DNA of 64,000 nt from an uncultured Lentisphaerales bacterium (GTDB lineage Bacteria; Verrucomicrobiota; Kiritimatiellia; RFP12; CAYQJG01). The stretch is taken from positions 29,297 through 93,296 of the forward strand of contig CAYQJG010000001.1 in the NCBI GenBank assembly GCA_964417715.1. Direction: 5' to 3'. The notes under the pieces are model-generated. The model was not told the DNA's origin, did not search any database, and saw only the letters and a list, made by a program, of their open reading frames with translations. Of this stretch, positions 3,124 through 62,970 are shown piece by piece. Each line of letters begins with the position of its first letter. Positions within the stretch are counted from its first letter, which is position 1. Position numbers and translations under genes: made by a program.

Positions 3124-3208
3124 GTCCGATCTTGACCTTTCTGGTTCGGAATAGGATCGTTAAACAGCGTAGCCGAAACTGCGGGGCAGGACAATAAGAA
3201 AGGGCGGA

Positions 3209-5161: not shown

Positions 5162-5173
5162 AGGAAACAACCC

Positions 5174-5698
5174 TTGCAGGCTGCGGGTCAAGCCGTTATT
5201 TTGCGGACCGTGACCAACCATTGGCAAGTCCTGTTCCTGAAACCCCGCACCGAAAAGAAGGTGGCCGAGGTGTGCCGCGCACACCGCCTGCCCTACTACC
5301 TGCCGCTGCAGACCACCACGAAGACCTACCAGCGCCGCAAAGTCACGTCAACCAAGCCCCTGTTCCCGGGCTACCTGTTCGTCGCCGTCGCTCAGGAGCA
5401 GAAGATGCTGCTGCAGCGAACCAGCCACGTGGTGCGGTTTCTCGTGCCGCACCAGCCCTTCCACATGCTGCGCCAACTGGTGCAGGTGCGCCGGGCGCTG
5501 CGGGCCGACCCCGCGTTGCGGCCGGTCAGCGCCCTGACGAAAGGCCGGCGCGTGCGCATCATCGGCGGGCCCTTCCAGGGCATGGAAGGCACCGTCACGC
5601 GCCTGGCGAGTTCCATGCGCGTCGTGCTGACCGTCGAGATGATCGGCATGGGCGTGGCTGTCACCGCCGAGATCGCCCAGGTCGAACCGCTTCGGTAG
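5174..5698 (+). CDS. NusG-family transcription antitermination paralog (NGN + KOW domains; RfaH/UpxY-like specialised NusG)
   Basis: WQVLFLKPRTEKKV…PLFPGYLFV (NGN) followed by GRRVRIIGGPFQGMEGTV (KOW). The track start is a TTG; the true start is probably the GTG near 5209. Confidence 0.65.
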   Translation: MQAAGQAVILRTVTNHWQVLFLKPRTEKKVAEVCRAHRLPYYLPLQTTTKTYQRRKVTSTKPLFPGYLFVAVAQEQKMLLQRTSHVVRFLVPHQPFHMLRQLVQVRRALRADPALRPVSALTKGRRVRIIGGPFQGMEGTVTRLASSMRVVLTVEMIGMGVAVTAEIAQVEPLR

Positions 5699-14397: not shown

Positions 14398-14580
14398 GCG
14401 CGTTCGTTTCACGCCGCATGGATACCACAGCGTGCCCGCAGCGTCAACCGGATGGCGATGCATAAGCGAGGCCAAGCAAGCATGCCCGTAAACATGCAAC
14501 CGATTGCCAAAGCCCCACTCGCGGCTGGACGGATTGCATCTGTCCCGCCCTCGTCCATAGCGTCGAGCCATCCACATCCC

Positions 14581-14775
14581 AACCCGCGCGTGCGGGCCGC
14601 ATCAATCACGCTGGCGCGCCGCTCGCAGACCGCGCCGCAGGCCGTCACACGGTCCGCGACGCGGAGTCTATCCATCACCTGTCGATATTATCCCGCCTCT
14701 CGGTCGCCTCGGTCCCTCCCGCCCCGTCGCGGCCCATCTGCACCTTCCGTTCACCGAATCGTGTCACACACGTTG
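14581..14775 (+). repeat. Intergenic direct repeat, copy 1 (~190 bp), left flank of the AT-rich R-M islet
   Basis: Begins AACCCGCGCGTGCGGGCC…CACGCTGGCGCGCCGCTCGCAGACC…GGCCGTCACACGGTCCGCG…CCATCACCTGT. About 85% identical to copy 2 over the first ~100 bp, with similarity continuing for ~190 bp. Confidence 0.6.
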
Positions 14776-14806
14776 TGAGTGAACGGAGAGCGAACCGCGC
14801 AGCGGG

Positions 14807-15751
14807 TCACTCGCACGTTCGACTCACTTGTTGGGTGATGTACTCTGCTCTTTCCTCCAAGAGCATCATCTGCTCTGGCTTTGGTTCCTGCCCATGATTA
14901 TGTTTCTGGATGTTTGCCGGAAAGTTGAAAACCAGCGCCTCAACTACAGACCTACGGTTTTCGATCCTTCCTCCAGAATGGTAGAAATGGTCTCGCGTCA
15001 CGATGTTGAACTTTCTCCAAAGCGAATCAATGAAGGGATTGGAACGATAATCGTTGTGGTGCCAAGTCGAGAGTATGAACCGCGCCGGCGAGGTCGAGAG
15101 GAGCATAAACAGTCTCTCCTCATCCTCTTCCTTCCATCCGCTATAATAGTCAACATAGCGCCCGATGTAGGGCGGATCGCAGTAAATGATGTCGTCTTTG
15201 GTCGCTTCGGCAATGGCCGCCGCGAAATCCTCGACACTGAACGTCCATCCCGACTGGATCAGACACGCAACATCATGCACCTGATTCACGATCTTCGTCA
15301 CGTATGCCGGAGCGAACCGTTCTGGTTTCTGACAAAATGGTATATTCCATCCCCCTTTCCGGTTAAACCTCATCATCCCATTGAACCCGGCACGGGAGAG
15401 AAAGAGGAAATCCAGCGGGTCATGTGACTGGTTAAAACGATCTCTGACGGCTCGGAAGTGCTCGTACCCCTTGTCCGGTGCTTTTTCAAGCAGCGCCCCT
15501 TCACGCTCGAGGTACTCGCGTACACATCTCGGTGTGATCTCGCGGTTCTTGATTGCTTGGTAGAACCGAATGAGGTGGGGGTTGACGTCGCCCAGCAGTG
15601 CCTCGCGAAAACCAGAGTTGAAAGCGACAACTCCGGTTCCGAGGAAAGGTTCAATCCACCGGCCCTTAACGACTGGCACTAGCGCCTGAATCCAAGGCAC
15701 CAACTTCGTCTTAATGCCTTGACTCTTGATCGGGGGGGTAATCACGCGCAT
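14807..15751 (-). CDS. Dam-family (alpha-class) DNA N6-adenine methyltransferase
   Basis: Motif I-like EPFLGTGVVAFN and the catalytic DPPY motif (IIYCDPPYIGRY). It lies in a markedly AT-richer segment than the flanking DNA and overlaps the downstream nuclease gene. Confidence 0.8.
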   Translation of the reverse strand: MRVITPPIKSQGIKTKLVPWIQALVPVVKGRWIEPFLGTGVVAFNSGFREALLGDVNPHLIRFYQAIKNREITPRCVREYLEREGALLEKAPDKGYEHFRAVRDRFNQSHDPLDFLFLSRAGFNGMMRFNRKGGWNIPFCQKPERFAPAYVTKIVNQVHDVACLIQSGWTFSVEDFAAAIAEATKDDIIYCDPPYIGRYVDYYSGWKEEDEERLFMLLSTSPARFILSTWHHNDYRSNPFIDSLWRKFNIVTRDHFYHSGGRIENRRSVVEALVFNFPANIQKHNHGQEPKPEQMMLLEERAEYITQQVSRTCE

Positions 15752-16674
15752 ACTGCCTCGGCGGTTTTAGTCTTCTTCTTCGTTGTCATCGGCACAATCC
15801 TGCGTTTGTCCCCACGTTTGAAGTCGAGAAAGTCCTTGATTGACCTGATCGGAGATGCCTTGCCTCTCTTCAGACGCGAAGTGACTCCGTGGTTCATCCA
15901 GTATTCGTCAAACCACTCCTCCCCGAGTCGAGCGAAGACGCCGTTTCCGCTTAGTATGTCTTCAATCCAAGTGATCGACCCGATGTTTGCGGTGTTGCCA
16001 GAACCTTGCTTGTCGCTTGCGAGACGCCACTTCTCGCAAACAAAGAATTGGAAGTCCCGGACCACGGAAGCAATTGACCGAAGGTTGTCAACAGAAGTCA
16101 CGCTGTAACGATGAGTTGGTTCGGCAACTGGACCATCCTCCAACTCCTTGACATGGACAATTTCAGTGTCGGCCAAGTCCTTTGCCGCAGTTCTCGTGTA
16201 GATGATTCCCAGGCAGAAGTGACCGGAGTACTCCGAATATGGAAATTGGATGTTCTTAGTGGACGTTCGCTCCTTGAAGTAGGCGCCGTGGCTGCCGAGT
16301 GTGAACCCATTTACGTGGCCGGGGAAATCCGGATCGCGGTACGTAGTCTTAAGGTCAACAGCAAACTTGACGGTCTGGTTGCTCTGCTTGACAAAACTGA
16401 AGTCAGGATACCAGTTCTGGTGTTCGGCCAGGACGATCGAATACCCATTGTCCTGGGCGAACTGGAGAATCCTCGGGAAGAGGTGGATCTCAAGGATTTT
16501 GGAGACGATCTTAGTGTCGGAACTGATTGTGTAAATGTTCTTGAAGATGTCGATAAAACCCTTGACCGTCCACTGCCCGTTTTCAGCCGAAACATACCCG
16601 CCAAGTCCCCTAACGAAATCCGTCAGGGCGTCCGAAAACGCTTCCTTTTCCGTCTGTCGCTCTTTGTTGTTCAT
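15742..16674 (-). CDS. Putative Type II restriction endonuclease (PD-(D/E)XK-like), partner of the Dam-family methylase
   Basis: Same strand as the methylase, with a 10-bp overlap, and the same AT-rich composition. A candidate PD…DLK motif (WYPDFSFVKQSNQTVKFAVDLK) is present. Recognition specificity (GATC?) is not determinable from sequence alone. Confidence 0.5.
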   Translation of the reverse strand: MNNKERQTEKEAFSDALTDFVRGLGGYVSAENGQWTVKGFIDIFKNIYTISSDTKIVSKILEIHLFPRILQFAQDNGYSIVLAEHQNWYPDFSFVKQSNQTVKFAVDLKTTYRDPDFPGHVNGFTLGSHGAYFKERTSTKNIQFPYSEYSGHFCLGIIYTRTAAKDLADTEIVHVKELEDGPVAEPTHRYSVTSVDNLRSIASVVRDFQFFVCEKWRLASDKQGSGNTANIGSITWIEDILSGNGVFARLGEEWFDEYWMNHGVTSRLKRGKASPIRSIKDFLDFKRGDKRRIVPMTTKKKTKTAEAVCA

Positions 16675-17190
16675 TTGGTCCTTTTCATCTTCTCACTCAC
16701 CATTGAATAGGTGGCCAGACGCAATCCACCGGTTCGAGGGGGTTAACAGCGCCGATACACACGGTTCATTCTATTCTGAAGAACGGTACGAGGTCAAACT
16801 CCCGTGACAACAACTCACAACTTGCGTACCGGCAATAACTTACGAGTCTGCCGCCCCGACGAATGGCGCAGTTCGCGATAGTGACGTCATGCCCGGCCAG
16901 GCGGTGCGTAACGGCCGGACGCGATCCACGGGTGAAACGATATGAGTTCGACGCAAGCCACTGACCTGCATGACGTTGACTCCTATTGGAAAGTCGGAAT
17001 CTGGTGGACGACAGGCACCGCCCCCACTTCCTGCGATGGCTCCAACGGTTCCTGTCGGGGCCTTGGGTGCCTATTCCGATGGTTTAGCGGGGTCAAGCGG
17101 GAGTTCTCGGCCCAAAACTGCGAGAGTTGGGCGCGACACCTGTTCACGCGGCGCACTCGGGGCTCGCGCTCTGGATCGGACGAATCGCTC

Positions 17191-17375
17191 AACCCGCGCG
17201 TGCGGGCCTCAGCCGTCACGCTGGCGCGCCGCTCGCAGACCCGGCGCGGGCCGTCACACGGTCCGCGCCGAGGATTCCATCACCTGTTGCGTTTGCCTCG
17301 CGCGTCGTTCGCGTCGTTTCGCCCCGTCCAGTTGTGGTCCATCTGCGCCTTCAGCACCCACTCACGCAAGTACTT
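17191..17375 (+). repeat. Intergenic direct repeat, copy 2, right flank of the R-M islet, ~105 bp upstream of the next + strand gene
   Basis: Homologous to copy 1 and to copy 3 across ~185 bp. A separate 23-bp match (AAACTGCGAGAGTTG-GCGCGA) at 17117 recurs at 20795. Confidence 0.6.
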
Positions 17376-26565: not shown

Positions 26566-27042
26566 TTACTTGGCAGCGGCGGGGGCAACGGGAGCAACAG
26601 GGGCAACGGGGGCAACAGGGGCAGCGCCCTTCTTCTCACCCTCGCGACCCGGCTTCCGGCCTTCGCCCATCTTGTTGCGGCGTTCCTCAAAGGACTTCCG
26701 CAGCTCTTCGGCTGTCAGGGCGCCGTTCGCATCGGCGTCGAGCTTCTTGAAGAGTTCCTCGGCGTTGGGAAGCTTGGTGGCGTCAAACTTGTCGCCCATT
26801 CGCTTCTTCATCTCTTCCTGACGCTTGGCCTGGGCGGCCTTGAACTCGTCCAGCGAGATCGTGCCGTTGGCGTCGGTGTCCATCGCCTTGAACCGCTCGA
26901 CAGCCATTTCACGGGCATGCTCGGAGGGGGGCTTCACAGCCGGGGCGTCACCTGCGGGTGCGACGACATCCGCCGCCCATGCGCGGCTGCCCAGGGCGGC
27001 CACGGCCATCAACATGCAGAGAAACTTGAATGAACTGTTCAT
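26566..27042 (-). CDS. Secreted EF-hand calcium-binding protein with a C-terminal (APV)n repeat
   Basis: Signal peptide MNSSFKFLCMLMAVAALGSRAWA. Two EF-hand loops (DTDANGTISLDEF, DADANGALTAEEL). AAGGAA SD. Start trimmed to ATG at 27042. Confidence 0.6.
   Translation of the reverse strand: MNSSFKFLCMLMAVAALGSRAWAADVVAPAGDAPAVKPPSEHAREMAVERFKAMDTDANGTISLDEFKAAQAKRQEEMKKRMGDKFDATKLPNAEELFKKLDADANGALTAEELRKSFEERRNKMGEGRKPGREGEKKGAAPVAPVAPVAPVAPAAAK
26583..26628. repeat. Short tandem repeat (GCAACRGGR)n encoding (APV)n
   Basis: gcaacgggagcaacaggggcaacgggggcaacagggg is visible directly in the sequence. Confidence 0.6.
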
Positions 27043-27166: not shown

Positions 27167-28831
27167 TCACGGTAGCGCCGCGGCAAGCGGCGCGTCAGGA
27201 GACGCGAGAGGGTGCACGAGCCGGGCCACGGCCGTCAGCACTTCGTCCGGCGTAACCGGTTTGCTCAGAATCTCGTCGACGCCTTCGGGGTACTCCTGTC
27301 GGTGCTTCATCAGGTCGCCAAAGCCGGTCAGCATGAGCACAAACGTGTCGGGCGCGACGTTCTTGACCTCCTTGGCCACCTCGTCGCCACACATGCCCGG
27401 CATGGCGCGATCAGTGACGACGACATCGAAGCCGCGCGCGCGCAGTTTCGCCAGTCCTTCGGCCCCGCCGGAGGCCGATTCGACCACGTGGCCGCCGCGT
27501 TCGAGGAAATCCACGAGCAGCGCGCGGGAGGTGTCGTCGTCATCGATTGCGAGCACCCGTTGCGGCTTTCCGGGCAAGCTTACGGCTGCGGGAAGCCCGG
27601 CGTCGGGCGGTCTGCATTCCGTCTGCACCAGCGGCAACCGGATGGTGAATGTCGTTCCGGCGCCTACCTCACTCGCGACATCGATGGAGCCACCGTACCG
27701 GTGCACCGCGCCATAGCACATGGCCAACCCCAGTCCGCTGCCGGCTTCGCCCTTGGTCGTGAAGAAGGGCTCGAAGCAGTGTCGGGTGACCTCTGCCGTC
27801 ATGCCGGCGCCGGTGTCGCTGACCTGTATGGTCGTCCAGCTGTCATCCTGCAGCGTGGATATGCGGACAACCCCTTCCTTCTCGATGGCGTCGACGGCAT
27901 TCAGCACCAGGTTGGCCAGCGCGCCCCGCAGCTCCGGTTCGTTGCCGCAGACGGCGCGCGTATCGGTTAGGGATGTCTCGATCCGGATATGCTTGCCGGC
28001 GGCCTCGGCCTGCCCTTTCCAGGCGGGTTCGGTCAGCGCCACGACGTGCTCGACGACATCACGCACGTTGAGGGGCTGGGTATCGAGCAGCCCGGGACGG
28101 TAGAACCCGCGCAGACGTCGGACGATGTCGCGCGCGTCATGGGCGGCGGCACGGATGGTCATGAGCGCCTTCTGGACGACGGGGGGGTCGGACAGGAGTT
28201 CGGGCTTGTCGAGCAGGAAGTCCGGCAGCCCCAGGATCGGCATGAGCGCGTTGTTGAAATCATGCGCGATGCCGCAGACCATCTGCGCCAGCGCGCTCAG
28301 GCGTTCGCGCTTGATCACCTCCTGCTGGGTGCGTTTCAGCTTCTCAAGCGCATCCTGCAGGAGCCGGTTGCTGCCGCGCAGGTCATGCGTGCGGTCGGCC
28401 ACCAGTTGCTCCAGTTTGCTCTGGTAGAGCTGATTCGACTCGGTCAGGCGGAATCGCTCGTCGTCCACGGCCTTGATCTTGGCCGCGCTGGCCACGGAAC
28501 GCAGCACGGCCGCCTTGGCGACCGGCTTGGTCAGATAGTCGAAAGCGCCCGCGCGGACCGCCTCGGCCGCCGTCTCCACAGTCGGCGCGCCGGTCATCAG
28601 GATGACCTGCACGCGCGCGGCCGCCTGCCGGATCAGCCGCAGCAGTTCCACGCCGGTCATCTGCGGCATGATGATGTCCGAGAGCACCACGTCGAAGCCG
28701 CCGACGCGCAGCAACTCCTCGGCCACCACGGCGTTCTCGGCCACCTCCACCTGGTGCCCGGCATCCTGCAGGAACTCCCGCAGCGTCAACCGGATGCTCC
28801 GCTCATCATCGACTAGCAGCACGCGTGCCAT
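27167..28831 (-). CDS. Hybrid sensor histidine kinase / response regulator (REC–HisKA–HATPase_c–REC)
   Basis: N-terminal receiver (LLVDDERSIR…DVVLSDIIMP), H-box (GIAHDFNNAL), G-boxes (DTGAGM…GSGLGL) and a C-terminal receiver (VLAIDDDDTSR…DVVVTDRAMPGM). Confidence 0.85.
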   Translation of the reverse strand: MARVLLVDDERSIRLTLREFLQDAGHQVEVAENAVVAEELLRVGGFDVVLSDIIMPQMTGVELLRLIRQAAARVQVILMTGAPTVETAAEAVRAGAFDYLTKPVAKAAVLRSVASAAKIKAVDDERFRLTESNQLYQSKLEQLVADRTHDLRGSNRLLQDALEKLKRTQQEVIKRERLSALAQMVCGIAHDFNNALMPILGLPDFLLDKPELLSDPPVVQKALMTIRAAAHDARDIVRRLRGFYRPGLLDTQPLNVRDVVEHVVALTEPAWKGQAEAAGKHIRIETSLTDTRAVCGNEPELRGALANLVLNAVDAIEKEGVVRISTLQDDSWTTIQVSDTGAGMTAEVTRHCFEPFFTTKGEAGSGLGLAMCYGAVHRYGGSIDVASEVGAGTTFTIRLPLVQTECRPPDAGLPAAVSLPGKPQRVLAIDDDDTSRALLVDFLERGGHVVESASGGAEGLAKLRARGFDVVVTDRAMPGMCGDEVAKEVKNVAPDTFVLMLTGFGDLMKHRQEYPEGVDEILSKPVTPDEVLTAVARLVHPLASPDAPLAAALP

Positions 28832-28843
28832 GGTCTACCCCCT

Positions 28844-30154
28844 TCACATGCCAACCGGAAGATCAAGATGAAACTGTGTGCCCTGCCCCATGACCGTCTC
28901 CATGTGCAGCACGCCCTGGTGCTCCTTGACGATCCCGTGGCTGATGGCGAGACCGAGGCCCGTGCCCTTGTCACGCGGCTTCGTCGTGAAGAAAGGGTCG
29001 AAGATGCGTTCGCGGATCTCGGGCGGAATGCCGAACCCCCTGTCGGTCACCGTCAGCCTGACCCAGTTCCGGCCCGCGCGTTCGACCTGGCCGGCCAGGA
29101 TTTGGATGCGTTTATCCTCGTGAAACCCGGGGTAGCGCTCGTTCAGTGCATCGCGCGCGTTCGTCAGCAGGTTCATGAGCACCTGCTGAATCTGCTGGCT
29201 GCAGCAGTCGACGGCCGGCAGGTCGGGCGACACGTTGACCTCGAGCACGATCTGGTCATGCCGCAGCACCGCGCGGACCAGACTCAGTGTGCCCTCGACA
29301 ATGTCAACGAGGCGTACCGGGCTGTGCACCTGCTTGTCCTGACGCGCGAAGGTCAGCAGGTTGTGGACAATGCTCGCCACGCGTTCGCCGGCATGCTCGA
29401 TCTCGCGCGCGAACTCGACGACGGAGGGATCGACGCCGGGCTTCTCGGCGATGATCTGCGCGTAATTCATGATCCCGCAGACCGGGTTGTTGATCTCGTG
29501 CGCCACGCCGCTGGCCAGTGTGCCGATGGATTCGAGCCGTTGCTGGTGGCGCAACTGCATGTCGCTCAGGCGCAACCGTTCGTCAGCCGCCCGCTGACGC
29601 TCCTGGTCGAGCAGCACCCAGCCGATGAGCGCCGTCACGGGAGGGAAGACCAGCAGCACGGGAAGCGCGATCTCGCCCAGCACCATGATGCGCCTGTCGC
29701 TCGGAAACGTGTATGTCCAGGCCAGCATGACGACGTGCACGAGAACACCGAACAGGTACAGACGCCACGGTGTGACCGCATCGGGGCAGCGCCGCCGGAG
29801 ATGGTGGTAGATCGCACCCAGCAGCCCGGAACTCGCGATCACGCCCACACCCATGAAGACGCCGTCACCCCCCAGCGACAGTCGATAGGGAATCGTCACA
29901 GCGACGGCCACGGCCGCCGCGACAAAGCCGCCGAACAACCCCGCCAGGCTGATCATGATCGACCGGCCGTCAAAGACGATGCCTGTCGAAAGCTCATGGG
30001 TCATCAGCATGGCGATCAGCGCGGCGCCGCCGAAAATCGCCCCGAAAACGAGCCGCCCCGAGAACGTGTCGCGGTCCCAGCGGAGCGCCGCCAGTCGGTA
30101 GATCACGCAGAGGGTGACCAGCAGCGTGGCGTTCTGGATAAGTCCAAGGATCAT
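28844..30154 (-). CDS. Sensor histidine kinase with an N-terminal 5TM LytS-like membrane domain
   Basis: GxxxG-rich TM bundle followed by HisKA (GVAHEINNP) and HATPase_c (DRGFGIP…GTGLGLAI). Start trimmed to the ATG that overlaps (ATGA) the stop of the upstream kinase gene. Confidence 0.8.
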   Translation of the reverse strand: MILGLIQNATLLVTLCVIYRLAALRWDRDTFSGRLVFGAIFGGAALIAMLMTHELSTGIVFDGRSIMISLAGLFGGFVAAAVAVAVTIPYRLSLGGDGVFMGVGVIASSGLLGAIYHHLRRRCPDAVTPWRLYLFGVLVHVVMLAWTYTFPSDRRIMVLGEIALPVLLVFPPVTALIGWVLLDQERQRAADERLRLSDMQLRHQQRLESIGTLASGVAHEINNPVCGIMNYAQIIAEKPGVDPSVVEFAREIEHAGERVASIVHNLLTFARQDKQVHSPVRLVDIVEGTLSLVRAVLRHDQIVLEVNVSPDLPAVDCCSQQIQQVLMNLLTNARDALNERYPGFHEDKRIQILAGQVERAGRNWVRLTVTDRGFGIPPEIRERIFDPFFTTKPRDKGTGLGLAISHGIVKEHQGVLHMETVMGQGTQFHLDLPVGM

Positions 30155-33100
30155 CAGGTGTTCCCTTCGGGTACGGGGGCAACGGGCAGATCCATGTGGA
30201 AGCGCGTGCCGCGGCCGGCCTGCGTCTCGAACGTCAGCCGACCGCCATGCTCCTGGACGATCCGCAGGCTGGAGGCCAGCCCCAACCCCACGTGCTCCGC
30301 GCGCGACTTGGTGGTGAAGAACGGGTTGAAGACGCAGGCGCGGACGTCGTCGGGCATTCCCGGCCCACAGTCGGCTACCGTCACACGCACCCATCGCCGG
30401 GTCGTCCGTGCTTCCGGCTGCGGCTCCGACAGCACGCACGCCGTCACACGCACCGTCCGGTCCGCGCCTTCAGTCGGTGCGTCCGCGCTCAGCACCTCGC
30501 GCGCATTCATCAGCAGGTGCACCAGAACCTGCTGGATCTGCTGGTTGTTGCAGACCACCTCGGGCAAACCGACCGGCAGCGTCACGTCGAGACCCAGGTT
30601 GGCCTTGTGGAACTGCGCCCGCACCAGGGCCACCGCCGAGTCGATCATCTCCGGCCAGGCGACCAACGTGCGCTTCCCGCCGTCAGGCCGTGCGAACGCG
30701 CCCAGGCTGCGCACGATCCCGGCCACGCGCTCCCCCTCGCTGATGATCATGCCGGCATACTCGCGCAGCGGACTGTCGGGAGGCAGTCGCTCCTGGATCA
30801 GCTCGGCGCATCCCAGCATGCCGCACAGCGGGTTGTTGATCTCATTGGCCACACCGCCGGCCAGTGTGCCGACCGCCGCCAGTCTGTGTTCCTGCCGCAG
30901 CAGCGACTCCATCTGTTCCTGCCGATCCTTGCTAAGCTTGCGCTCAGTCACGTCGAGAACCGAGATCAGCAGGTGCGGACGATCACCCACGCTCACGGGC
31001 GTTGCATAGAACAGGCAGACGAGAATCGCCCCGTGCTTGGTCCGGCAATCGCATTCCCATCCTCGGACACCCTCCTGCATGTTCACGGCGGACAACATGC
31101 GTTCCCGGTCGTGCGGGTTGCAGAGCAACCCCAGTTCAATCGTCGTGTGGCCGACCACCTCCGCGCGCGCGTATTCGAATAGCCGCAGGAAGGCGTCATT
31201 GGCATCGGTGTAGCGGCCGCTCTCACGCTCACTAACCAGCATGGCGATCGGGCTCTTCAGGAAGGCCGTGGCAAACCGAAGTTCGCTCTCGCGCGTGGCC
31301 TGGTGCTGCTGCACCAACTCGGCAGTCCGAATGCGGACCAGACGCTCGGCCCGGAAACGTCCCGCCGTCAGGCTGCTCAGCAACCAGCCGGACAGGACCG
31401 ACACCAACAGCCCTGCCGGCAGAACCCAGCGATATGCTGTGGCCAGGTTGGCCGCGACAAAAGCCTCCGTCGGCATAACCGTGATGATCCAGTCGCGTCC
31501 GGCCATGTCCAATGGAACCGCATAGACCCCCAGGCGGGCGGGATCGGCGACGGGCGCCGTCTGACTGAGCCGCAGCCGGCCTCCCTGTGGCGCAGACAGG
31601 TCCTCGATCCGCAGGTCGGTCCGTTCCGATGCAATCCGTGCGTCAACTGAGCCCTCGTTGACGAGGCCCGTCAGGCTGTAAACCCCCATGACGAAGCCGC
31701 GCAAGTCGCGGCGGCGTTCAGCAACCGTCGTGGGTGACTCCGCCGCGCGCGCATAGACGGGCGCAAAGACCACAAAGGTCGGCGACGATGCCGCGTCCGT
31801 TGTGTCCTGAAGCACGGGTGTGGCCCGCGCCTGCCCGGCGTCGCACGCACGCGACATCGCGGCCCAGCGATCGGGGTCGGATGCCAGGTCCCACCCCACG
31901 CTGGCCGGGCCACCGCGCGCCCGGCTCACATAGTGATAGAGGGGGAAGTACGCGCTGTGATCGCCGATCGGCACAGGCCGGCCCGCCGCGTCCCGCGCCG
32001 CGATCTGGAAACCGACCATACCCGCCTGGCGGGCATGCGCCTCGCAGTCGGCACGCCCGTCTCCCGGAATGCGCGGCACCCAGCCCAGCGCCACCACAGG
32101 CCCCGTGCCCAGACGTCCGCCCGCCAGGAGATCGAACTCGTGGCGGTCGACCTCCTCGTCGACCTCGTGGAAACGGCGGAGTTCATCCAGCGTATCCAGG
32201 CAATCCGCGGCGGCACGGGCAACAGCCCGCACGCGTGCGCCGGCCTGCGCGCGGAAGACCCCGACCAGGTCGTCGACCGCGGCACGCCGCAACTCCAGGT
32301 GGACGGCCAGAGTCAACAGCATGCCGGCCACGCCGGCGATGACAACCGGCGCCCAGTTGACCAGCGGATCGACGGCTTCGCCCTGCCGCGCCGAGGCCAG
32401 CGCCTGGCGCAGCCGACAGCTATAGCTGTAGCTGAGCAGGATCACCAGGCAGAGCAGGGCGGTGAGACTGAGCGCGACGAAACGTTGGCGCGCCACGGCC
32501 AGACGAACCTGGCCGGCGTCCTGATCAACGCCCATGACTACGACAGACGGATCGGTGCCGGCCAGGCGGACCGGGCAGAAAGCCGACAGCCAGTCGCCCC
32601 AGCGGTCGTTGTAGATGCGCGTCGTCACGGCTGCACCGGACTGAAACAGCGCGACAAGTTCGGCGGGCGCTTCGGCATAGATCTGGCCGGGCGGCGATTC
32701 ATCGGCCGAACCGGGCGCCTCGGAATCCACGAGGAAGATGACCTGCTGCGCCACTTTCCGCGCCAGATAGACGAATCGCACATGCGGCATGCTCTGCCTG
32801 AAAACACGCAACTGCTGCTTCAGCCGCCGATACTCAGGGACCGTCAGATCAGCCGGCGTACCGGTCAGGCGGGCAACTTGCGTCGTGTCGACCACCGCTG
32901 ACGCCAGCACGGCTGTCTCCAGGAGCCGGGCCGACTGCCGCCGGCCTTCGCGCGCGCCCATCCACTGGGTGGCGCTCCACCCGCACGCCAGGACGGCCAG
33001 CAGCGCGCCGGCCAGCCACGCATGCAGCCGGCGGTCGCCGGACGACGTATGGTCACCCAGCCGATTGCGTGCATTATGCAACGCGACCCCGGTTGCCAGA

Positions 33101-33726
33101 CAGCAGGCCAACAGACCACGCAGGTACTGAACGGGGAACCCGGACGCCCACGCAAACAGGCTGTGATCGAGCAGATGCGCAGCCGGCCACAGCGCGACGG
33201 GGATGACCAGCCCTTCGGCCAGGGCATACACCGACATGGCGCAGGCCGCGCACGCAAGCGTCCAGACGGTGCCCGCGGCACGACGGGCTGCACGCGCCAG
33301 CGCCCAGGCCGCCCAGAGCGCCGCCGGCAACCCCAAGGCTACGCGGATGGCGGCGTCATAGCCGGCGGGATGAACGTGTCCGCCTATGCCAGCGAGCACC
33401 AGGAACGGCAGGATGATCCAGCGCCCCGGCGCATGGCCTCCTCCCTGCCGCGTGCCGGCACGTCCGAACTCCATGAGACAGGCAAAGGCCACAACCAGCA
33501 GGCCCAGGTGCAGCATGGCCTGCCACCGGCTGTCACCCAGGCTGATCGCCAGCATGCCCAGCCACTCGTTGAGGCCATGCGTCAGGCCGAACAGGCCCAG
33601 CCAGCGCCACGGCAGACAACCCGGACCGTACGCCAGCCGCCCGCGGCACACGTCCGCCAGAAGCAGAAACGCCGCCCCGCAGACGAAGAACACCCAATCC
33701 ATCTGGCTGTTCGGAAACCCGTTCAT
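30154..33726 (-). CDS. Large multi-domain sensor histidine kinase (polytopic N-terminal membrane domain, extracytoplasmic sensor region, second TM, PAS, HisKA, HATPase_c)
   Basis: 1190 aa. PAS-like region (…SPIAMLVSERESGRYTDANDAFLRLF…), H-box (GVANEINNPL) and G-boxes (DCGPGMP…GLGLAS). Confidence 0.8.
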   Translation of the reverse strand: MNGFPNSQMDWVFFVCGAAFLLLADVCRGRLAYGPGCLPWRWLGLFGLTHGLNEWLGMLAISLGDSRWQAMLHLGLLVVAFACLMEFGRAGTRQGGGHAPGRWIILPFLVLAGIGGHVHPAGYDAAIRVALGLPAALWAAWALARAARRAAGTVWTLACAACAMSVYALAEGLVIPVALWPAAHLLDHSLFAWASGFPVQYLRGLLACCLATGVALHNARNRLGDHTSSGDRRLHAWLAGALLAVLACGWSATQWMGAREGRRQSARLLETAVLASAVVDTTQVARLTGTPADLTVPEYRRLKQQLRVFRQSMPHVRFVYLARKVAQQVIFLVDSEAPGSADESPPGQIYAEAPAELVALFQSGAAVTTRIYNDRWGDWLSAFCPVRLAGTDPSVVVMGVDQDAGQVRLAVARQRFVALSLTALLCLVILLSYSYSCRLRQALASARQGEAVDPLVNWAPVVIAGVAGMLLTLAVHLELRRAAVDDLVGVFRAQAGARVRAVARAAADCLDTLDELRRFHEVDEEVDRHEFDLLAGGRLGTGPVVALGWVPRIPGDGRADCEAHARQAGMVGFQIAARDAAGRPVPIGDHSAYFPLYHYVSRARGGPASVGWDLASDPDRWAAMSRACDAGQARATPVLQDTTDAASSPTFVVFAPVYARAAESPTTVAERRRDLRGFVMGVYSLTGLVNEGSVDARIASERTDLRIEDLSAPQGGRLRLSQTAPVADPARLGVYAVPLDMAGRDWIITVMPTEAFVAANLATAYRWVLPAGLLVSVLSGWLLSSLTAGRFRAERLVRIRTAELVQQHQATRESELRFATAFLKSPIAMLVSERESGRYTDANDAFLRLFEYARAEVVGHTTIELGLLCNPHDRERMLSAVNMQEGVRGWECDCRTKHGAILVCLFYATPVSVGDRPHLLISVLDVTERKLSKDRQEQMESLLRQEHRLAAVGTLAGGVANEINNPLCGMLGCAELIQERLPPDSPLREYAGMIISEGERVAGIVRSLGAFARPDGGKRTLVAWPEMIDSAVALVRAQFHKANLGLDVTLPVGLPEVVCNNQQIQQVLVHLLMNAREVLSADAPTEGADRTVRVTACVLSEPQPEARTTRRWVRVTVADCGPGMPDDVRACVFNPFFTTKSRAEHVGLGLASSLRIVQEHGGRLTFETQAGRGTRFHMDLPVAPVPEGNT

Positions 33727-33859: not shown

Positions 33860-35005
33860 CTAGCGGATCTTGACCAGCAGCACGAACAACAGGGGGATCA
33901 GGAACGCCTGTACGAGCATGAAGCGCATCAGCACCTGCGCGTTGCTCCAGTGCATGTTGCGGCGGCAGTGGTCATGCAGCGGGAACCGCACGCTGTGCAG
34001 GGCCCGCACGAGCACGTGCTGCTCCGCGGCGGCGGCGGGGGTCAACTTGCCGGGCGGGGTAATGTCGAACCCGATGCGCTTCAGCATGCGCAGCAGGATC
34101 AGTTTGAACAGTCCGGTGCCGCCGTTGACCAGCACCACCGGCGAGACCACGAAGATCAGGAACGGGTTGCCGGCGGCCAGCACGGCGAGTCCGACCAGCA
34201 GTCCCAGCAGCCGCGAACCGGCATCGCCCATCAGCACACGGCTGGGTTCGGCGTTATGCCAGAGGTAGCCCGCCAGACCACCTGCCACGGTCGCCACGAG
34301 GATCGCCCAGCGCGCGCCGTCAGCCTTGTGCGGAATCAGCAGGTAATCAGAGATGGGCCGATAACCCACCACGCCGTAAAGCAGCCCCGCCAGCGCAAAC
34401 AGCGACAGCAGGGTCAATGCGCCTGCAAGCCCATCCACGCCGTCGGAGCAGTTGGTTGCGTTCATGGTGAACCACAGTACCGCCGTCGCCATGGGCAGGT
34501 AGGCCCACAGCGGCAGCACAATGGCCTGCTTGTAGACGGGCAGCCAGATCGACACGGCGTGGCCGCGACTCAGACAGAAGGCCGCCATGAGCGCCACCAG
34601 CAGGTCCAGCAACCCCTTGCGTGCCTCGCCCCAGGCCAGACTGCTGCAATCGTCGAGGTAACCGAACAGCATCGCCAGGTACAGGCTCGCGAGCGCGCCC
34701 AGTTCCCAGAACCCCATCGGCACACACAGCAGGACCACGGGCAGCATCAGGAGCGTCATCTGATAGCCGGCTCCGGTGGGCTTGCCGGCCGACTGGTGCC
34801 CGTCCTTGACCAGCACCTTGCCGCGGTCGCGTGGCAGCCGGTGCCATTGCCGCGGCAACACGCTCCAGACCAGCAGGCCGGACACGAGCGTGCCCAGCGC
34901 CAGCAGGATGATGTGCGAACTCAACAGACGGAAAGGCCCCCACACAGGGCTCAACCACGACCCCAACCAGAAAAGCATCGGTAGTACCTCGCCGGACAGG
35001 AACAC
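33860..35005 (-). CDS. MraY/WecA-family polyprenyl-phosphate N-acetylhexosamine-1-phosphate transferase (glycosyltransferase family 4)
   Basis: NATNCSDGVDGLAG motif (the NAxNxxDGxDGLA signature) and ~10 TM helices. Confidence 0.7.
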   Translation of the reverse strand: MFLSGEVLPMLFWLGSWLSPVWGPFRLLSSHIILLALGTLVSGLLVWSVLPRQWHRLPRDRGKVLVKDGHQSAGKPTGAGYQMTLLMLPVVLLCVPMGFWELGALASLYLAMLFGYLDDCSSLAWGEARKGLLDLLVALMAAFCLSRGHAVSIWLPVYKQAIVLPLWAYLPMATAVLWFTMNATNCSDGVDGLAGALTLLSLFALAGLLYGVVGYRPISDYLLIPHKADGARWAILVATVAGGLAGYLWHNAEPSRVLMGDAGSRLLGLLVGLAVLAAGNPFLIFVVSPVVLVNGGTGLFKLILLRMLKRIGFDITPPGKLTPAAAAEQHVLVRALHSVRFPLHDHCRRNMHWSNAQVLMRFMLVQAFLIPLLFVLLVKIR

Positions 35006-35079: not shown

Positions 35080-35508
35080 TCATCTCCCGTTTTCCCATGC
35101 CTCCGGCGTCATGACGCGGACCACCTTGGATGCGCGTTCGATCACCTCGGCATCATTGGTCAACAGGACCGCATCCGACAGGTTTGCGACTGCCACATAG
35201 ATTGCATCGGCGCCGCGCAGGAACAGGGTGGCTGCGAAGCGCTCGGCCGTTTCTGCACACGCCTCCGAAAGTGGCTGCCAAACGTGCACGGCAGAACCGC
35301 GTACCCACGCGGCGGCCGAACGCCCCTGCCGGGCGTCGCGCGTCTTCCGGGCGATGGTGGCAGCCACCTCGACTGGCAGTAACAACGGCGAGTAGTGACG
35401 GGCTGATTGCCCAGACGCCTTCAGCAGGCAGGCGCGACAGGCTTCCGCAGCCGGATCATGAACGTCCAGCGCGCTGACCCAGACATTCGCGTCAACGGTC
35501 AGTCTCAT
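35080..35508 (-). CDS. vapC: PIN-domain ribonuclease toxin VapC
   Basis: 142 aa. MRLTVDANVW… places a conserved Asp at position 6 (PIN). It overlaps the upstream antitoxin ORF by 4 bp. Confidence 0.7.
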   Translation of the reverse strand: MRLTVDANVWVSALDVHDPAAEACRACLLKASGQSARHYSPLLLPVEVAATIARKTRDARQGRSAAAWVRGSAVHVWQPLSEACAETAERFAATLFLRGADAIYVAVANLSDAVLLTNDAEVIERASKVVRVMTPEAWENGR

Positions 35509-35783
35509 CGACGTTCCGCCTGAAGGATGTCTCGGCAGGATCGCTTGTCGACCGCTGTTCGGCCTATCTTCTCTGCCAGTTCGTTGGTCTCACGTACCCA
35601 CTTCGCGGCCCAGGCGTCCTTCTTTTTCGCCGAAGTCTGTTCTGGTTCGTCCAGCGACACACGCCCGTCCAGCCATTGCTCGTAGAGACGCTGTGTGACG
35701 GCGCGTACGGACTGTCCGTCGAGGGAGCTTTTCGACTTCACACGGCGGTAAAGCGTATCCGGCAGTTCAATCGTGGTCTTCAT
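35505..35783 (-). CDS. Putative antitoxin of the VapBC module
   Basis: 92-aa ORF immediately upstream of vapC with a 4-bp overlap. MKTTIELPDTLYRRVK… is a typical antitoxin N-terminal beta-strand DNA-binding motif. Confidence 0.5.
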   Translation of the reverse strand: MKTTIELPDTLYRRVKSKSSLDGQSVRAVTQRLYEQWLDGRVSLDEPEQTSAKKKDAWAAKWVRETNELAEKIGRTAVDKRSCRDILQAERR

Positions 35784-47372: not shown

Positions 47373-49079
47373 TCAGGTGTAGCGCAAGACTTCGTCCACC
47401 GTGGTATATCCGTCGAAGACATTGCGGATGCCGTCCTCGCGCATGGTGCGCATGCCGAGTTCACGCGCTTTCTCGCGAATGAACAGCGTAGGCTTGCGAT
47501 CATTGATCAACTGGCGGATCGGCTCGGTCAGTCGCAGGTACTCAAACAGGCCCTTGCGTCCCTTGTAGCCCGTGCCATTGCACAGCGAACAGCCGCGTCC
47601 GTAGTAGAACGACCGCCCCGCCACATCCGGACGCTTCAGCGACATCCGCGCCAGCACATCGTCGTCGGGCTCGTAGGCCTGCTTGCAGTTGGAGCAGATG
47701 GTCCGCACCAGGCGCTGACCCAGGATGGACTCGAGCGTGGAGGAGATCAGGTAGGGTGCCACCTGCATGTCAATCAGTCGGGTGACGGCGCCGGAGGAAT
47801 CGTTGGTGTGCAGGGTACTGAACACCAGGTGGCCCGTCAGCGAGGCCTGGATCGCGATTTCAGCCGACTCCAGATCGCGGATCTCACCGATCATCATCAC
47901 ATCGGGGTCCTGACGCAGGAAGGCGCGCAACACGTTGGCGAACGTGTTGCCGGTCAGGGGGTTGATCGGCACCTGGATGATGCCGTCGATGTCGTATTCG
48001 ACCGGTTCCTCGGCCGTCAGCAGTTTCTGGTCGATCGTGTTGATGCGGTTCAGACAGGCGTAGAGGCTGGTCGTCTTGCCCGAGCCGGTCGGCCCGGTGA
48101 CGATGATGATCCCGTTCGGCTTCTCGATGTCGAGTGTCAGCGCCTCGAACACGTCCTCGGGCAGGCCGATGTTCTCGATATCCAGCGACACGACGCTGCG
48201 GTCGAGCACGCGCAACACCACGCTCTCGCCAAAACGCGTCGGCAGGCAGGACACGCGCAAGTCGATGTGGCGGCCCGCGACCGTCAGCGAGATGCGGCCG
48301 TCCTGCGGCATGCGCCGCTCGGCGATGTTGAGGTTGGACATGACCTTCAGGCGCGAGATGATCGGCAGCGCCAGGCGCCGCGGCGGCGGCTGCATCTCGT
48401 AGAGCGCACCGTCCACGCGGTAGCGGATGCGGAACTCCTTCTCGAACGGCTCGAAGTGGATGTCCGACGCGCGGTCGGCGACGGCCTGGTAGAGCACCAG
48501 GCTCACGAACCGGACGACCGGGGCCGAACCGGCGGCCTGCTCGATCCCCTTCTCGTCCGCGGTCTCATCCACGGCCAGCGACGCATCCTGCTCGATGATC
48601 GTCTCGAGGTTGGACAGCATGTCATTGACGGTCTCGCTCTCGTCGCCATAGAACTGGTTGACGCGCGCGCGGACATCGACTTCACGCGCCATGACGAAGG
48701 CCACGTCGCGCGTCAGGACGAACATCAGTTCGTCCATGACATGCGGCTCGACCAGCATGGACGTGGCCAGCGTGATCGTGCCCGGCTGCATCGAGACGGG
48801 CACCACGTTGTACATGCGCGCCACGCTGGCCGGCAGGCTCCGGATGACGTCGGGGGTGATCTCGTAGGTGGTCAGATCGACCACGTCGCACCCCTGGTAG
48901 GCGGCCATCATGCCGAGCAGGTCGTCCTCGGTGGTGTAGCCGGTGTCGATGATCAGGTTGCGCAGCGGCTTGGCGGTGCGGTCGTGCTCCTCGCGGAGCT
49001 CCTGCGCCTGCGCTGCGTCCATGATCCCGTTGCTGACCGCAAGATCCAGAATGGAATCGAAATGCTCCGGGGTGCTCAT
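47373..49079 (-). CDS. GspE/PilB-family type II secretion / type IV pilus assembly ATPase (paralog 2)
   Basis: N-terminal GspE_N domain, Walker A (GPTGSGKTT), Asp and His boxes, and a C-terminal CxxC…CxxC zinc motif. Confidence 0.85.
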   Translation of the reverse strand: MSTPEHFDSILDLAVSNGIMDAAQAQELREEHDRTAKPLRNLIIDTGYTTEDDLLGMMAAYQGCDVVDLTTYEITPDVIRSLPASVARMYNVVPVSMQPGTITLATSMLVEPHVMDELMFVLTRDVAFVMAREVDVRARVNQFYGDESETVNDMLSNLETIIEQDASLAVDETADEKGIEQAAGSAPVVRFVSLVLYQAVADRASDIHFEPFEKEFRIRYRVDGALYEMQPPPRRLALPIISRLKVMSNLNIAERRMPQDGRISLTVAGRHIDLRVSCLPTRFGESVVLRVLDRSVVSLDIENIGLPEDVFEALTLDIEKPNGIIIVTGPTGSGKTTSLYACLNRINTIDQKLLTAEEPVEYDIDGIIQVPINPLTGNTFANVLRAFLRQDPDVMMIGEIRDLESAEIAIQASLTGHLVFSTLHTNDSSGAVTRLIDMQVAPYLISSTLESILGQRLVRTICSNCKQAYEPDDDVLARMSLKRPDVAGRSFYYGRGCSLCNGTGYKGRKGLFEYLRLTEPIRQLINDRKPTLFIREKARELGMRTMREDGIRNVFDGYTTVDEVLRYT

Positions 49080-49080
49080 A

Positions 49081-50172
49081 TCACTTTCCCCTTGCCTGCA
49101 GTTCTTCCTTGAGTTTCGCCACCAGCGTGTCCGGATCCTGCGACTTGGTGATCACGTCCTCGTAGTGGATGAGCCCCTTCAGGTAGAGCTCGAGCAGATG
49201 CGAGTCCAGCGTCGTCATGCCGTACTTGGAACCGGTCTGGATATCGGATGTGATCTGGAAGGTCTTGTTGTCGCGAATGCGCGCGCGAATCGCCGGCGTG
49301 GAGATCATGACCTCGAAGGCCGCCACGCGGCCCGGCTTGTCGGCCCGCGGCAGCAGCAACTGCGAGATCACCGCCACCAGGCCGACCGACAACTGCGTGC
49401 GCACCTGTTCCTGCCGGTCGGTCGAGAAGGCGTCCACGATGCGGTCGACGGTCGTGGCGGCGCCGGTCGTGTGCAGCGTGGCGAAGACAAGGTGACCTGT
49501 TTCGGCCGCCGTGATGGCGGCCTGCATCGTCTCGAGGTCGCGCATTTCGCCGACGAGAATCACGTCCGGGTCCTGGCGCAGGCCGCGGATGATCGCCTCG
49601 GCGAAGCTCGGCACGTCCACGCCGATCTCACGCTGCGTGACGATCGACTTCTTGTGGTTGTGGTAATACTCGATCGGATCCTCGATCGTCACGATATGGG
49701 CGTCGCGCTCGACGTTGATGATGTTGATCATGCTGGCCAGCGTGGTCGATTTGCCCGAACCGGTGGGGCCGGTAACGAGAATCAGGCCGCGCGGGCGGAA
49801 CAGCAGCTCCTTGACCTGGTTGGGCAGGCCGATCTGCTCCAGTGTGAGCAGTTTGGAGGGGATCAGACGCAGGACGACGCCCACGTTGCCCTTCTCCTTG
49901 AACACGCTCACGCGAAAGCGCGCCAGTTCGCCGAATCCGAAACCGAAGTCGGTGCCGCCGCGCTCGCGCACCTTCTGCTGATGCTCGGCCGATGTGATGC
50001 TCTTCATCAGCCGCTCGGTGTCATCGGGCGTGAGCGGCGCCGCGTCGAGCGGATTAAGCGCCCCGTGGATGCGCAGGATCGGCGGCACGCCCACGCGCAG
50101 ATGCAGGTCCGACGCGCCTTCGTCGAAGGCCAGCTGCAACAGATCGCTCATCTCAACGGCAGGGTTGCTCAT
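49081..50172 (-). CDS. pilT: Type IV pilus retraction ATPase PilT
   Basis: 363 aa. [21 protein letters not shown] Walker A and the PilT-specific C-terminal region. ATGA start/stop overlap with the upstream gspE-like gene. Confidence 0.88.
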
Positions 50173-51878: not shown

Positions 51879-51919
51879 GCCGGTTCTCCTGCGCTACGGG
51901 CGGCTTGCCCGTCGCGCGT

Positions 51920-62675: not shown

Positions 62676-62970
62676 GCTTCAACTCCCCTTTCTGGGACTC
62701 CGCCTCTTCAGTGACCGCAGCACAGGCACGATCACATAGTGTCAGCGTACAGATGCACATCATCGCGTGCAACCGTCGTTACTTCGTTTCTCCCGTCGTT
62801 ACTTCGGTGTTTGGCAACGCGGTCGGCGCACTCACGCGGCACCCTTGAGCCTTGAGCCCCGCGAGGACTCGCCTGTCGTTTTGATCGCTTTCTGGTGCGC
62901 GCCCTGTTATACCTTGGTGTAGTTCGACTGACGCATGTCTGTCGGAGCAGGAGACTTGCCCCGGCAGTGG

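Follow-up and report, generated by a model that had tools for sequence, protein, structure and literature searches.

A receiver-controlled hybrid kinase as candidate second tier behind two membrane sensor kinases in an uncultured Lentisphaerales bacterium

Three adjacent minus-strand genes in a 64-kb stretch of DNA from an uncultured Lentisphaerales bacterium (contig CAYQJG010000001.1; the whole stretch of 64,000 nucleotides is called the window here and all positions are in its coordinates) encode histidine kinases or kinase-like proteins that we call, in 5' to 3' order, K1, K2 and K3. On the evidence of its sequence and its modelled structure, K3 is best described as a kinase controlled by an N-terminal receiver (a Rec-controlled kinase) and furnished with an extra, C-terminal receiver; it conforms to that description in every sequence and structural comparison that we made. 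We propose, with somewhat better than even confidence, that the three genes specify a two-tier pathway in which K1 and K2 would act on the N-terminal receiver of K3, whose kinase would in turn act on its own C-terminal receiver, on a regulator encoded elsewhere, or on both. An earlier reading made from the DNA letters (the sequence-only reading) had offered kinase-to-kinase signalling with an output encoded elsewhere as one of several possibilities. It is now the best-supported one, on the strength of a conserved gene neighbourhood that goes with the N-terminal receiver and of the Rec-controlled architecture, and the wiring is of a known type. No new kind of system need be invoked, and the missing regulator has a simple explanation: K3 would itself be the response regulator of K1 and K2, with a kinase for its output domain.

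Architecture of K3

The sequence-only reading counted three sensor kinases. K1 and K2 are indeed sensors; K3 is not, having neither a transmembrane segment nor a sensor domain. It starts with a receiver (REC1, a Pfam Response_reg match at residues 4-111), which is joined by a signalling helix to the DHp domain (for dimerization and histidine phosphotransfer), the CA domain (for catalysis and the binding of ATP) and the second receiver, REC2 (Table 1). An N-terminal receiver with no transmembrane segment and no other sensor domain is also the layout of the Rec-controlled kinases of the LvrB type, and Pfam shows nothing in K3 beyond the two receivers and the kinase core. Full-length orthologues of K3 (~540-590 residues) are 40-59 % identical to it over ~97 % of its length, and those with a named source come from metagenome-assembled genomes (MAGs) of Kiritimatiellia and Lentisphaerae. 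When 44 of them are aligned, D52 and K102 of REC1 prove invariant, as do H190 and K524, while D474 is kept in 43 and T502 in 42; the CA motifs (N311, DxGxG at 339-343, the FEPFFTTK stretch, G366 and G368) are invariant or nearly so. Since the catalytic residues are kept in all or nearly all of the 44, both receivers and the kinase look functional.

The closest solved structures to REC1 are the receivers of NtrC1, NtrC4, FleR and DctD, and it is with kinases of the HEIxNP type that receivers of the NtrC class normally pair. The kinase core resembles those of ZraS, KinB, FixL, CckA, LvrB and ShkA. In an AlphaFold2 (AF2) model built on the alignment (mean predicted local distance difference test score 86.6), an unbroken helix, residues 106-208, runs from alpha5 of REC1 through the linker into the first DHp helix, which carries H190. 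The spacing between K102 and H190 is 74, 81 or 88 residues in 39 of the 44 orthologues, steps of seven being what is expected of a coiled-coil signalling helix. When the model was compared with the Protein Data Bank by Foldseek, six chains of entry 8vc9 (Leptospira LvrB in the form with its receiver phosphorylated) came out on top, with E 2e-23 and ~420 aligned columns that span Rec, DHp and CA; the root-mean-square deviation is large, a consequence of unequal linker lengths. In having a receiver after its CA domain, K3 also answers to the description of a phosphorelay hybrid kinase; local searches did not find the histidine phosphotransfer (Hpt) partner that belongs to that description.

Gene order and packing

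That the three open reading frames (ORFs) are co-directional and on the minus strand, and that the proteins have the Pfam domains that the sequence-only reading gave them, is borne out by the Pfam scan and by a codon-position G+C pattern that is that of real genes (G+C content is ~66 % across the window). Independent gene calls on public contigs yield identical K1, K2 and K3 proteins, and the call on L003, a contig that figures below, gives the same 436-residue K2. The supposed 4-nt ATGA overlap of K1 and K2 at 30154 has to be corrected: the overlap is a single nucleotide (TGATG), the A that the K2 ATG shares with the K1 stop codon. Translational coupling of K1 and K2 at this overlap is plausible. 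The K2 stop codon is separated from the K3 start by 12 nt, and an AGGGGG Shine-Dalgarno sequence precedes K3. The three genes are thus packed like an operon. Signals in the DNA do not define the transcription unit: terminator-like sites do not occur more often within the kinase block than they do in shuffled sequence, scans for sigma70 promoters and terminators gave chance-level counts inside the operon, and its intergenic regions contain no sigma54-promoter consensus, with matches at or below chance.

The transmitter shared by K1 and K2

K2 combines a 5TM-5TMR_LYT sensor (residues 27-182; PF07694, E 7.5e-23) with HisKA and HATPase_c domains, and its hydropathy profile has six hydrophobic segments. 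Its H-box and alpha1, GTLASGVAHEINNPVCGIMNYAQII, form a cassette that is very widespread and strikingly conserved; the signature of the K2-type transmitter can be written GTLAxGVAHEINNPxxGIMNYAQLI. The DHp-CA cores of K1 and K2 are 45 % identical (E 3e-66) and make up one transmitter family. Both have H-boxes of the H-E-I-x-N-P class, AHEINNP in K2 and ANEINNP in K1 (AHEINNP in the strain represented by L003), but the adjacent REC-AAA+(sigma54)-HTH regulator of an NtrB/NtrC-type pair is missing, there being no Sigma54_activat domain in the window. The 5TM-5TMR_LYT input of K2 is that of LytS/LytTR systems, but its DHp domain is HisKA (PF00512) and not PF06580, and no LytTR or receiver gene adjoins it; on sequence criteria, the sensor module is all that K2 has in common with LytS-type systems. 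Most relatives of K2 bear an extra PAS domain.

Neighbourhoods of K3 orthologues

The surroundings of six K3 orthologues were read from precomputed gene calls (loci are referred to by contig labels such as L090 and P0205), and more loci were gathered with a DNA pattern of family-specific residues, which matched all known orthologues and 1 of 80 unrelated kinase loci. (A scan of a genome collection with the K3 alignment was dropped: among the matches listed were generic motifs and relatives of other architectures at 27-45 % identity, and no true orthologues.) Run on a metagenome collection, the pattern returned 120 loci, which included ten more true orthologues with the receiver-kinase-receiver (REC-HK-REC) architecture. 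Most of the 120 specify proteins of ~750 residues that consist of a sensor, a K3-type core and REC2, without the N-terminal receiver.

K2-type kinases were counted upstream on the same strand and within 6 kb, at loci with usable upstream sequence and with the window included. They are found at 9 of 14 REC1-bearing K3 loci and at 0 of 65 loci that have the K3 core and REC2 without REC1 (Fisher p about 1e-8; because loci of the one class probably belong to other phyla than those of the second, common ancestry exaggerates this contrast and the p-value overstates independence, which to that extent weighs against the pathway proposed here). The K2-type kinase therefore goes with REC1, not with the kinase core, as a cognate kinase-receiver pair predicts. 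Sigma54 activators, also counted within 6 kb, occur at 5 of 16 loci of the first class and 2 of 82 of the second.

At L090, the locus of the closest K3 orthologue (59 % identity), the kinase encoded directly upstream carries LEAVGTLAGGVAHEINNPIMGIMNYADLI, which is nearly letter for letter the K2 signature. Kinases with that signature precede K3 orthologues twice over in L094 and in L095, and also occur in L092/L160, L129, L130, L131 and L181. Both upstream kinases of L094 also show a weak match to the N-terminal module of K1 (93 and 121 bits). In L092/L160 what comes immediately after the K2-type kinase is a HisKA_3 kinase to which a second REC1-like receiver (153 bits) is fused, with a NarL-type regulator after it; the pattern of this transmitter plus a REC1-type receiver-kinase therefore recurs with another second tier. 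NtrC-type regulators (REC-Sigma54_activat-HTH_8) are encoded 0-2 genes downstream of K3 in L090, L092/L160, L096 and P0205, and upstream of it in L188, and in relatives a single-domain receiver often lies between the K3 orthologue and the sigma54 activator.

Co-occurrence of the three kinases across relatives, which the sequence-only reading had named as a check on its proposal, is found in a looser form. The exact trio is limited to near-identical strains; what recurs is one or two transmitter-bearing sensors followed by K3. These loci define a REC-HK-REC family, seen for the most part in MAGs of Kiritimatiellia and Lentisphaerae, and its usual neighbours (on the upstream side sensors with this transmitter and on the downstream side, often, a sigma54 activator), and they provide concrete predictions of signalling partners for lineages that are mostly uncultured. 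As a separate observation on L090, a KaiC-like ATPase gene and two KaiB genes, followed by a gene for a PAS-GAF kinase, lie at 2336-4807 of that locus, upstream of its kinase cluster.

Search for a regulator or an Hpt protein in the window

The sequence-only reading saw no output regulator or Hpt protein nearby, and Pfam, phmmer and profile hidden Markov model (HMM) searches extend that finding to the entire 64 kb. Pfam scans took in 46 ORFs, which are nearly all of those chosen by a filter on third-codon-position G+C (two at the right-hand end, 62052-62678 and 62932-63999, fell outside the set), and yielded zero further Response_reg, Hpt or Sigma54_activat domains. Neither phmmer, with both K3 receivers as queries, nor profile HMMs of REC1, REC2 and Hpt (the last made from eight Hpt tails of K1 homologues) detected anything besides the three kinases among all six-frame ORFs of at least 50 residues. 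With the AAA+ domain of a sigma54 enhancer-binding protein as query and every six-frame ORF of 60 residues or more as target, phmmer found no activator in the window either. K3 lies at 27-29 kb of the window, so that its nearest possible partner must be over 27 kb distant in either direction. The regulator that accompanies the K3 family in relatives is thus unlinked in the source genome. Nor is an Hpt protein annotated in the six related loci with precomputed gene calls; one that serves K3 may be encoded elsewhere in the source genome.

The HTH_34 regulator of the nearby creD block had been described as divergent from the kinase genes. It is on the plus strand and converges on the kinase operon, and we reject it as the kinase output: it is part of a convergent block on the opposite strand.

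Loss of the K1 phospho-acceptor

K1 matches CHASE (residues 525-716, E 7e-30), PAS (817-930), HisKA (953-1017) and HATPase_c (1061-1183), with hydropathy peaks at residues 9-27, 70-88, 157-175, 416-434, 461-479 and 768-786. The last two of these flank the CHASE domain and the kinase core follows, which is the architecture of a CHASE receptor kinase. Residues 1-460 (window 32347-33726) have no counterpart in Pfam even when hits up to E 5 are admitted; residues 1-415 consist of a hydrophobic N-terminal module and an unannotated domain that is probably extracytoplasmic. K1 homologues have the N-terminal module and CHASE in common with it, and the motifs PWxWLxLFGLxHGxNEW and DSEPPGSxDESPPGQ of residues 1-460 are conserved in numerous large kinases from Omnitrophica, Phycisphaerales and related MAGs.

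The phosphorylatable H-box histidine that a CHASE receptor kinase should have is absent from K1 in the window and in five other assemblies, a point that the sequence-only reading passed over: the H-box reads GGVA-N-EINNP, as against SGVA-H-EINNP in K2, with asparagine at residue 961. K1 homologues with an HEINNP-type H-box carry histidine at this position. The 1190-residue protein P0079 (Logan run SRR21424287) is identical to K1 at 1189 of 1190 positions by BLASTP, the sole difference being H961 for N961, and L003, its 6003-bp contig, which is 99.9 % identical to the window, has CAT at codon 961 and five DNA differences in all. The Asn allele recurs base for base in SRR21424289, SRR21424292, SRR12261224, SRR12261225 and SRR12261226 (L004-L008), as well as in a 179,760-bp NCBI contig. 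An assembly error, which we considered, is rejected, since the same allele turns up in the NCBI contig and in all five of these Logan assemblies, which come from two run series; the allele is therefore real, recent and derived, and both alleles exist within one run series. (The other four differences between L003 and the window, three of them synonymous and one P216A, are clustered in the K3 linker and DHp region, in the 157 bp at 28178-28334, codons 166-218; the remaining 5.8 kb differs at K1 codon 961 only. The cluster may be a small recombination tract between strains.)

K1 retains the N, G1, F and G2 boxes for ATP binding, and of the phosphatase motif H-E-x-x-N it has kept both Glu and Asn. 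In HisKA kinases the key phosphatase residue is the Asn four residues past the His; as for the His itself, the phosphatase activity of EnvZ and CrdS can do without it or is only stimulated by it, but that of PleC requires it (H610A) (PMC3510030). The same substitution in NtrB, H139N, produces a phosphatase-only protein (bioRxiv 10.1101/122606). K1 of this strain is, to judge from its sequence, probably kinase-dead, unable to autophosphorylate, which would leave K2 and K3 as the two proteins of the three that can, and by analogy with these proteins K1 may still act as a phosphatase. For a non-synonymous change at random, the chance of striking residue 961 is ~1 in 1190. The location of H961N, at the exact phospho-acceptor, suggests selection; one single-nucleotide polymorphism (SNP) does not prove it. 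The K1 segment that follows the H-box is GMLGCAELI, as against the family consensus GIMNYAQLI, and the K1 core scores lowest of the K3-associated kinases. Both features are consistent with a relaxed constraint on K1. A natural His-to-Asn change in a near-identical population offers a clean case of the tuning of two-component wiring in nature.

A two-tier pathway and its alternatives

From what is observed (gene order and packing, domains, catalytic residues, the H961N allele, the statistics of synteny and the structural resemblance) we infer the phosphotransfer steps, all of them, and the direction of regulation. K1 and K2 would be membrane sensors with unlike inputs (the N-terminal module, CHASE and PAS in K1, the LytS-type 5TM module in K2) and the same NtrB/DctB-like HEINNP H-box, and their common target would be Asp52 in the NtrC-like REC1 of K3. 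Phosphorylation of REC1, on the analogy of LvrB, would be passed along the continuous alpha5/signalling helix to the DHp domain, where it would switch autophosphorylation of His190. The phosphoryl group of His190 would then go to Asp474 of REC2, to a separate response regulator, or to both, and the regulator, predicted to be encoded outside the window, might be an NtrC-type sigma54 activator or a single-domain receiver, as it often seems to be in relatives. In this particular strain, K1 with its H961N change would be at most a phosphatase or modulator, which would make K2 the sole local phosphodonor.

Several findings weigh against this proposal, besides the ancestry of the loci contrasted above. 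K3 orthologues without a K2-type kinase upstream exist (L096, L120, L188 and L193). K2-type transmitters are very widespread, also in phyla that lack the K3 family (Clostridia), and are not exclusive partners of K3. The window searches found no local Hpt protein that would take phosphate onward from REC2. The departure of K1 alpha1 from the consensus means that K1 may have a partner other than that of K2. Finally, the sigma54 activators track the REC1-bearing loci and not the K3 core in general, which fits a branched topology equally well.

Two topologies, in fact, are compatible with what the sequences tell: a linear one, in which the sensors act on K3 and K3 on the activator, REC2 serving as an internal sink or modulator, and a branched one, in which the sensors act on both K3 and the activator. 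In the latter, K1 and K2 would be NtrB-like kinases whose main target is an unlinked NtrC-type sigma54 activator, and K3 would be a second receiver in competition with it, a side branch or phosphate sink by which the signal is tuned or redirected, instead of an obligatory tier. The HEINNP H-box class does classically pair with regulators of the NtrC family, the activators co-occur with REC1 and not with the K3 core, REC1 is itself NtrC-like, so that the same kinases could read both receivers, and the second REC1-like receiver that directly follows the K2-type kinase in L092/L160 is an instance of one-to-many wiring. On the other hand, the adjacency of kinase and K3 is kept where there is no activator within 9-10 kb (L094, L095 and L129) and in the window, where at least 27 kb to the left and to the right are free of one, and in L096 the activator directly follows K3 with no K2-type kinase nearby, which suggests that the activator goes with K3. 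These last two observations lean towards the linear topology, and the co-occurrence of activators with REC1 leans towards the branched one; we consider the side-branch role for K3 unlikely. That the three genes are independent orphan kinases, neighbours in a genome with many two-component genes, that each has an unlinked partner and that no phosphotransfer takes place among them, is less likely still. The exact trio is not conserved, it is true: the best non-self relative of K1 (42 % identical) has the N-terminal module and CHASE in common with it but differs in its C-terminal half and its neighbourhood, the sole relative with the architecture of K2 (P0155, 41 %) stands alone, and long runs of assorted kinase and receiver genes are found in related genomes. 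The tight coupling of the genes speaks against chance adjacency, and so, most strongly, does the fact that REC1-bearing K3 orthologues have the K2-type transmitter upstream of them in several independent contigs, and none of the 65 control loci has it.

A further alternative makes K1 and K2 a heteromeric sensor upstream of K3, a complex that would integrate two sets of inputs and in which the His-less K1 would be a pseudokinase that regulates K2 allosterically or, with its intact ATP-binding domain, phosphorylates His219 of K2 in trans. Interactions of this kind between kinases are documented for GacS and RetS (PMC5992135, PMC8498467). The start-stop overlap would favour co-translation in a fixed ratio, the DHp-CA cores are paralogous, and K1 has kept its ATP-binding boxes in spite of losing the His. 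Paralogous kinases, however, are usually insulated against heterodimerization. The presence of His961 in the 99.9 % identical strain and in all the homologues examined marks K1 as ancestrally a normal kinase, and the one or two upstream kinases of other K3 loci, with their unrelated inputs, argue against an obligate pair. We regard such a heteromer as very improbable. The two-tier proposal can also be generalized, into a signalling hub that spans the Planctomycetes-Verrucomicrobia-Chlamydiae (PVC) group, where interchangeable HEINNP/GIMNYAQLI sensors feed a REC-HK-REC protein and that in turn a sigma54 activator, possibly in the service of envelope polysaccharide, and where H961N has been selected as the change that makes K1 a phosphatase-only or pseudokinase partner of K2. 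This we hold to be distinctly unlikely; if it were true, K1 H961N would be nature's equivalent of NtrB H139N, the classic allele of the laboratory.

Neighbouring genes and other features of the window

Table 1. Positions of the kinase genes, their domains and key codons, and the genes next to them (window coordinates)
Feature	Position	Strand	Description and basis
K1	30154..33726	-	1190-residue membrane multi-sensor histidine-kinase-like protein; ORF, translation, Pfam
K1 domains	CHASE 31579-32154; PAS 30937-31278; HisKA 30676-30870; HATPase 30178-30546	-	Pfam
K1 codon 961, AAT (Asn)	30844..30846	-	SNP at window 30846, T here vs G in L003
K1/K2 junction, TGATGA	30151..30156	-	K1 stop TGA 30156-30154, K2 start ATG 30154-30152; sequence read directly
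K2	28844..30154	-	436-residue membrane kinase, ATG at 30154; Pfam, motif, hydropathy
K2 domains	5TM-5TMR_LYT 29609-30076; His219 codon 29498-29500; HATPase 28853-29197	-	Pfam, motif
K3	27167..28831	-	554-residue soluble kinase, best described as a Rec-controlled hybrid; Pfam, alignment, AF2 model
K3, N-terminal half	REC1 28499-28822 (D52 codon 28676-28678); signalling helix 28292-28516	-	Pfam, AF2
K3, core and C-terminus	DHp 28097-28291 (H190 codon 28262-28264); CA 27626-27943; REC2 27212-27559 (D474 codon 27410-27412)	-	Pfam
Glycos_transf_4 gene	33860..35005	-	WecA/MraY-like membrane glycosyltransferase; Pfam PF00953, E 2.7e-26
PIN-domain toxin gene	35080-35508	-	between rplT terminator and Glycos_transf_4 gene
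Small ORF	35505-35783	-	overlaps start of PIN gene; upstream of glycosyltransferase gene
EF-hand gene	26566..27041	-	secreted calcium-binding protein, 158 residues, signal-peptide-like N-terminus; Pfam EF-hand_6/5/1/7

The Glycos_transf_4 gene, for which the gene call on the Logan contig L004 gives 372 residues, ends 133 nt upstream of K1 and may be the first gene of the kinase transcription unit. In P0205 a Glycos_transf_4+HisKA fusion is encoded directly upstream of the K3 orthologue, near Wzz, Wzy and Poly_export genes, and the two linkages together hint at a tie between the pathway and the synthesis of envelope polysaccharide. Further upstream in the window, the PIN gene and the small ORF that overlaps it are probably a toxin-antitoxin pair of the VapBC type, beyond which lie rplT and a strong terminator. 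On the other side, the EF-hand gene is 125 nt 3' of K3 and on the same strand. The spacer is AT-rich, the tail of the protein is rich in Pro, Ala and Val, and there are a promoter-like site at 27170-27141 and a weak terminator-like hairpin at 26563-26547. We considered the EF-hand protein as a core part of the pathway and rejected it as probably none: its gene comes with a separate AT-rich spacer and promoter-like site, and none of the other 15 K3-family loci examined has such a gene.

Elsewhere in the window, 14580-17352 is an island of low G+C content (~58 % vs 66 %) with two overlapping minus-strand genes, one for a Dam-like N6-adenine methyltransferase (15751-14807), in which IYCDPPYIGRY is the motif, and one for a 310-residue probable restriction endonuclease (16674-15742). 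It is flanked by direct repeats of ~170 nt (14580-14747 and 17190-17352, 71-92 % identical) and looks like an inserted restriction-modification cassette. Three consecutive genes at 47373-51893 encode ATPases of the T2SSE family (PilB/PilT-like), and a NusG-like paralogue is encoded at 5144-5698; a weak NusG-like match also follows the K3-activator pair in P0205. Rfam and tRNA scans across the 64 kb were both empty.

Comparison with known systems

The closest likeness is to the Lvr cascade of Leptospira, in which LvrA phosphorylates the receiver of LvrB, the signalling helix of LvrB forms a coiled coil, its CA domains are released, and LvrB then phosphorylates LvrC (PMC13269768, PMC5863495). 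Rec-controlled kinases of this kind are described as frequent (PMC13269768). In that cascade, as in the window, a kinase gene directly precedes the gene for a soluble REC-DHp-CA protein that lacks a sensor domain. LvrB and K3 share a helix that is continuous from receiver to DHp, as well as linker lengths spaced by heptads, and neither the Lvr kinases nor those of the window have a DNA-binding domain, the final regulator being a separate protein in the one case and predicted to be so in the other. The two differ in that K3 has the additional C-terminal receiver, with an identity to LvrB of only ~21 %, in that a single cytoplasmic PAS kinase stands upstream in the Lvr system where two membrane sensors stand here, and in that the Lvr regulator is an anti-sigma-factor response regulator, while the neighbour of K3 in relatives is a sigma54 activator.

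For the mechanism in which a kinase acts on a receiver-kinase there is precedent in the CheA3-CheS3-CheY3 cascade of Rhodospirillum centenum (PMC4436063) and in the two-tiered KipF-PakF pathway of Sphingomonas melonis (Kaczmarczyk et al. 2015, as cited in PMC5863495). In both, as proposed here for K3, the first kinase phosphorylates the N-terminal receiver of the second, this controls the autokinase of the latter, and a separate regulator comes next; in the case of CheS3, phosphorylation of the receiver inhibits the kinase. CheS3 and PakF differ from K3 in having cores of the HWE/HisKA_2 type, other partners and no C-terminal receiver.

K1 has its counterpart in NtrB H139N (NRII-H139N), which likewise has Asn for His at the phospho-acceptor of an H-box of the H-E-I-x-N-P class and retains both Glu and Asn in its phosphatase motif. 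The NtrB allele was engineered in the laboratory (Atkinson and Ninfa 1993, as cited in PMC3510030), whereas K1 H961N is a natural allele of metagenome assemblies. A looser likeness is to the GacS/RetS/LadS/PA1611 network of Pseudomonas aeruginosa (PMC5992135, PMC8498467, PMC5812489), where a single hub kinase likewise collects the signals of several sensors with different inputs, the gene for the regulator lying elsewhere. Direct contacts between DHp domains, and Hpt relays, largely account for the working of the Gac network, whose genes are unlinked; in the window the sensors and the hub are encoded in one operon-like block, and the connection between them would probably be made by His-to-Asp transfer on to the N-terminal receiver of K3.

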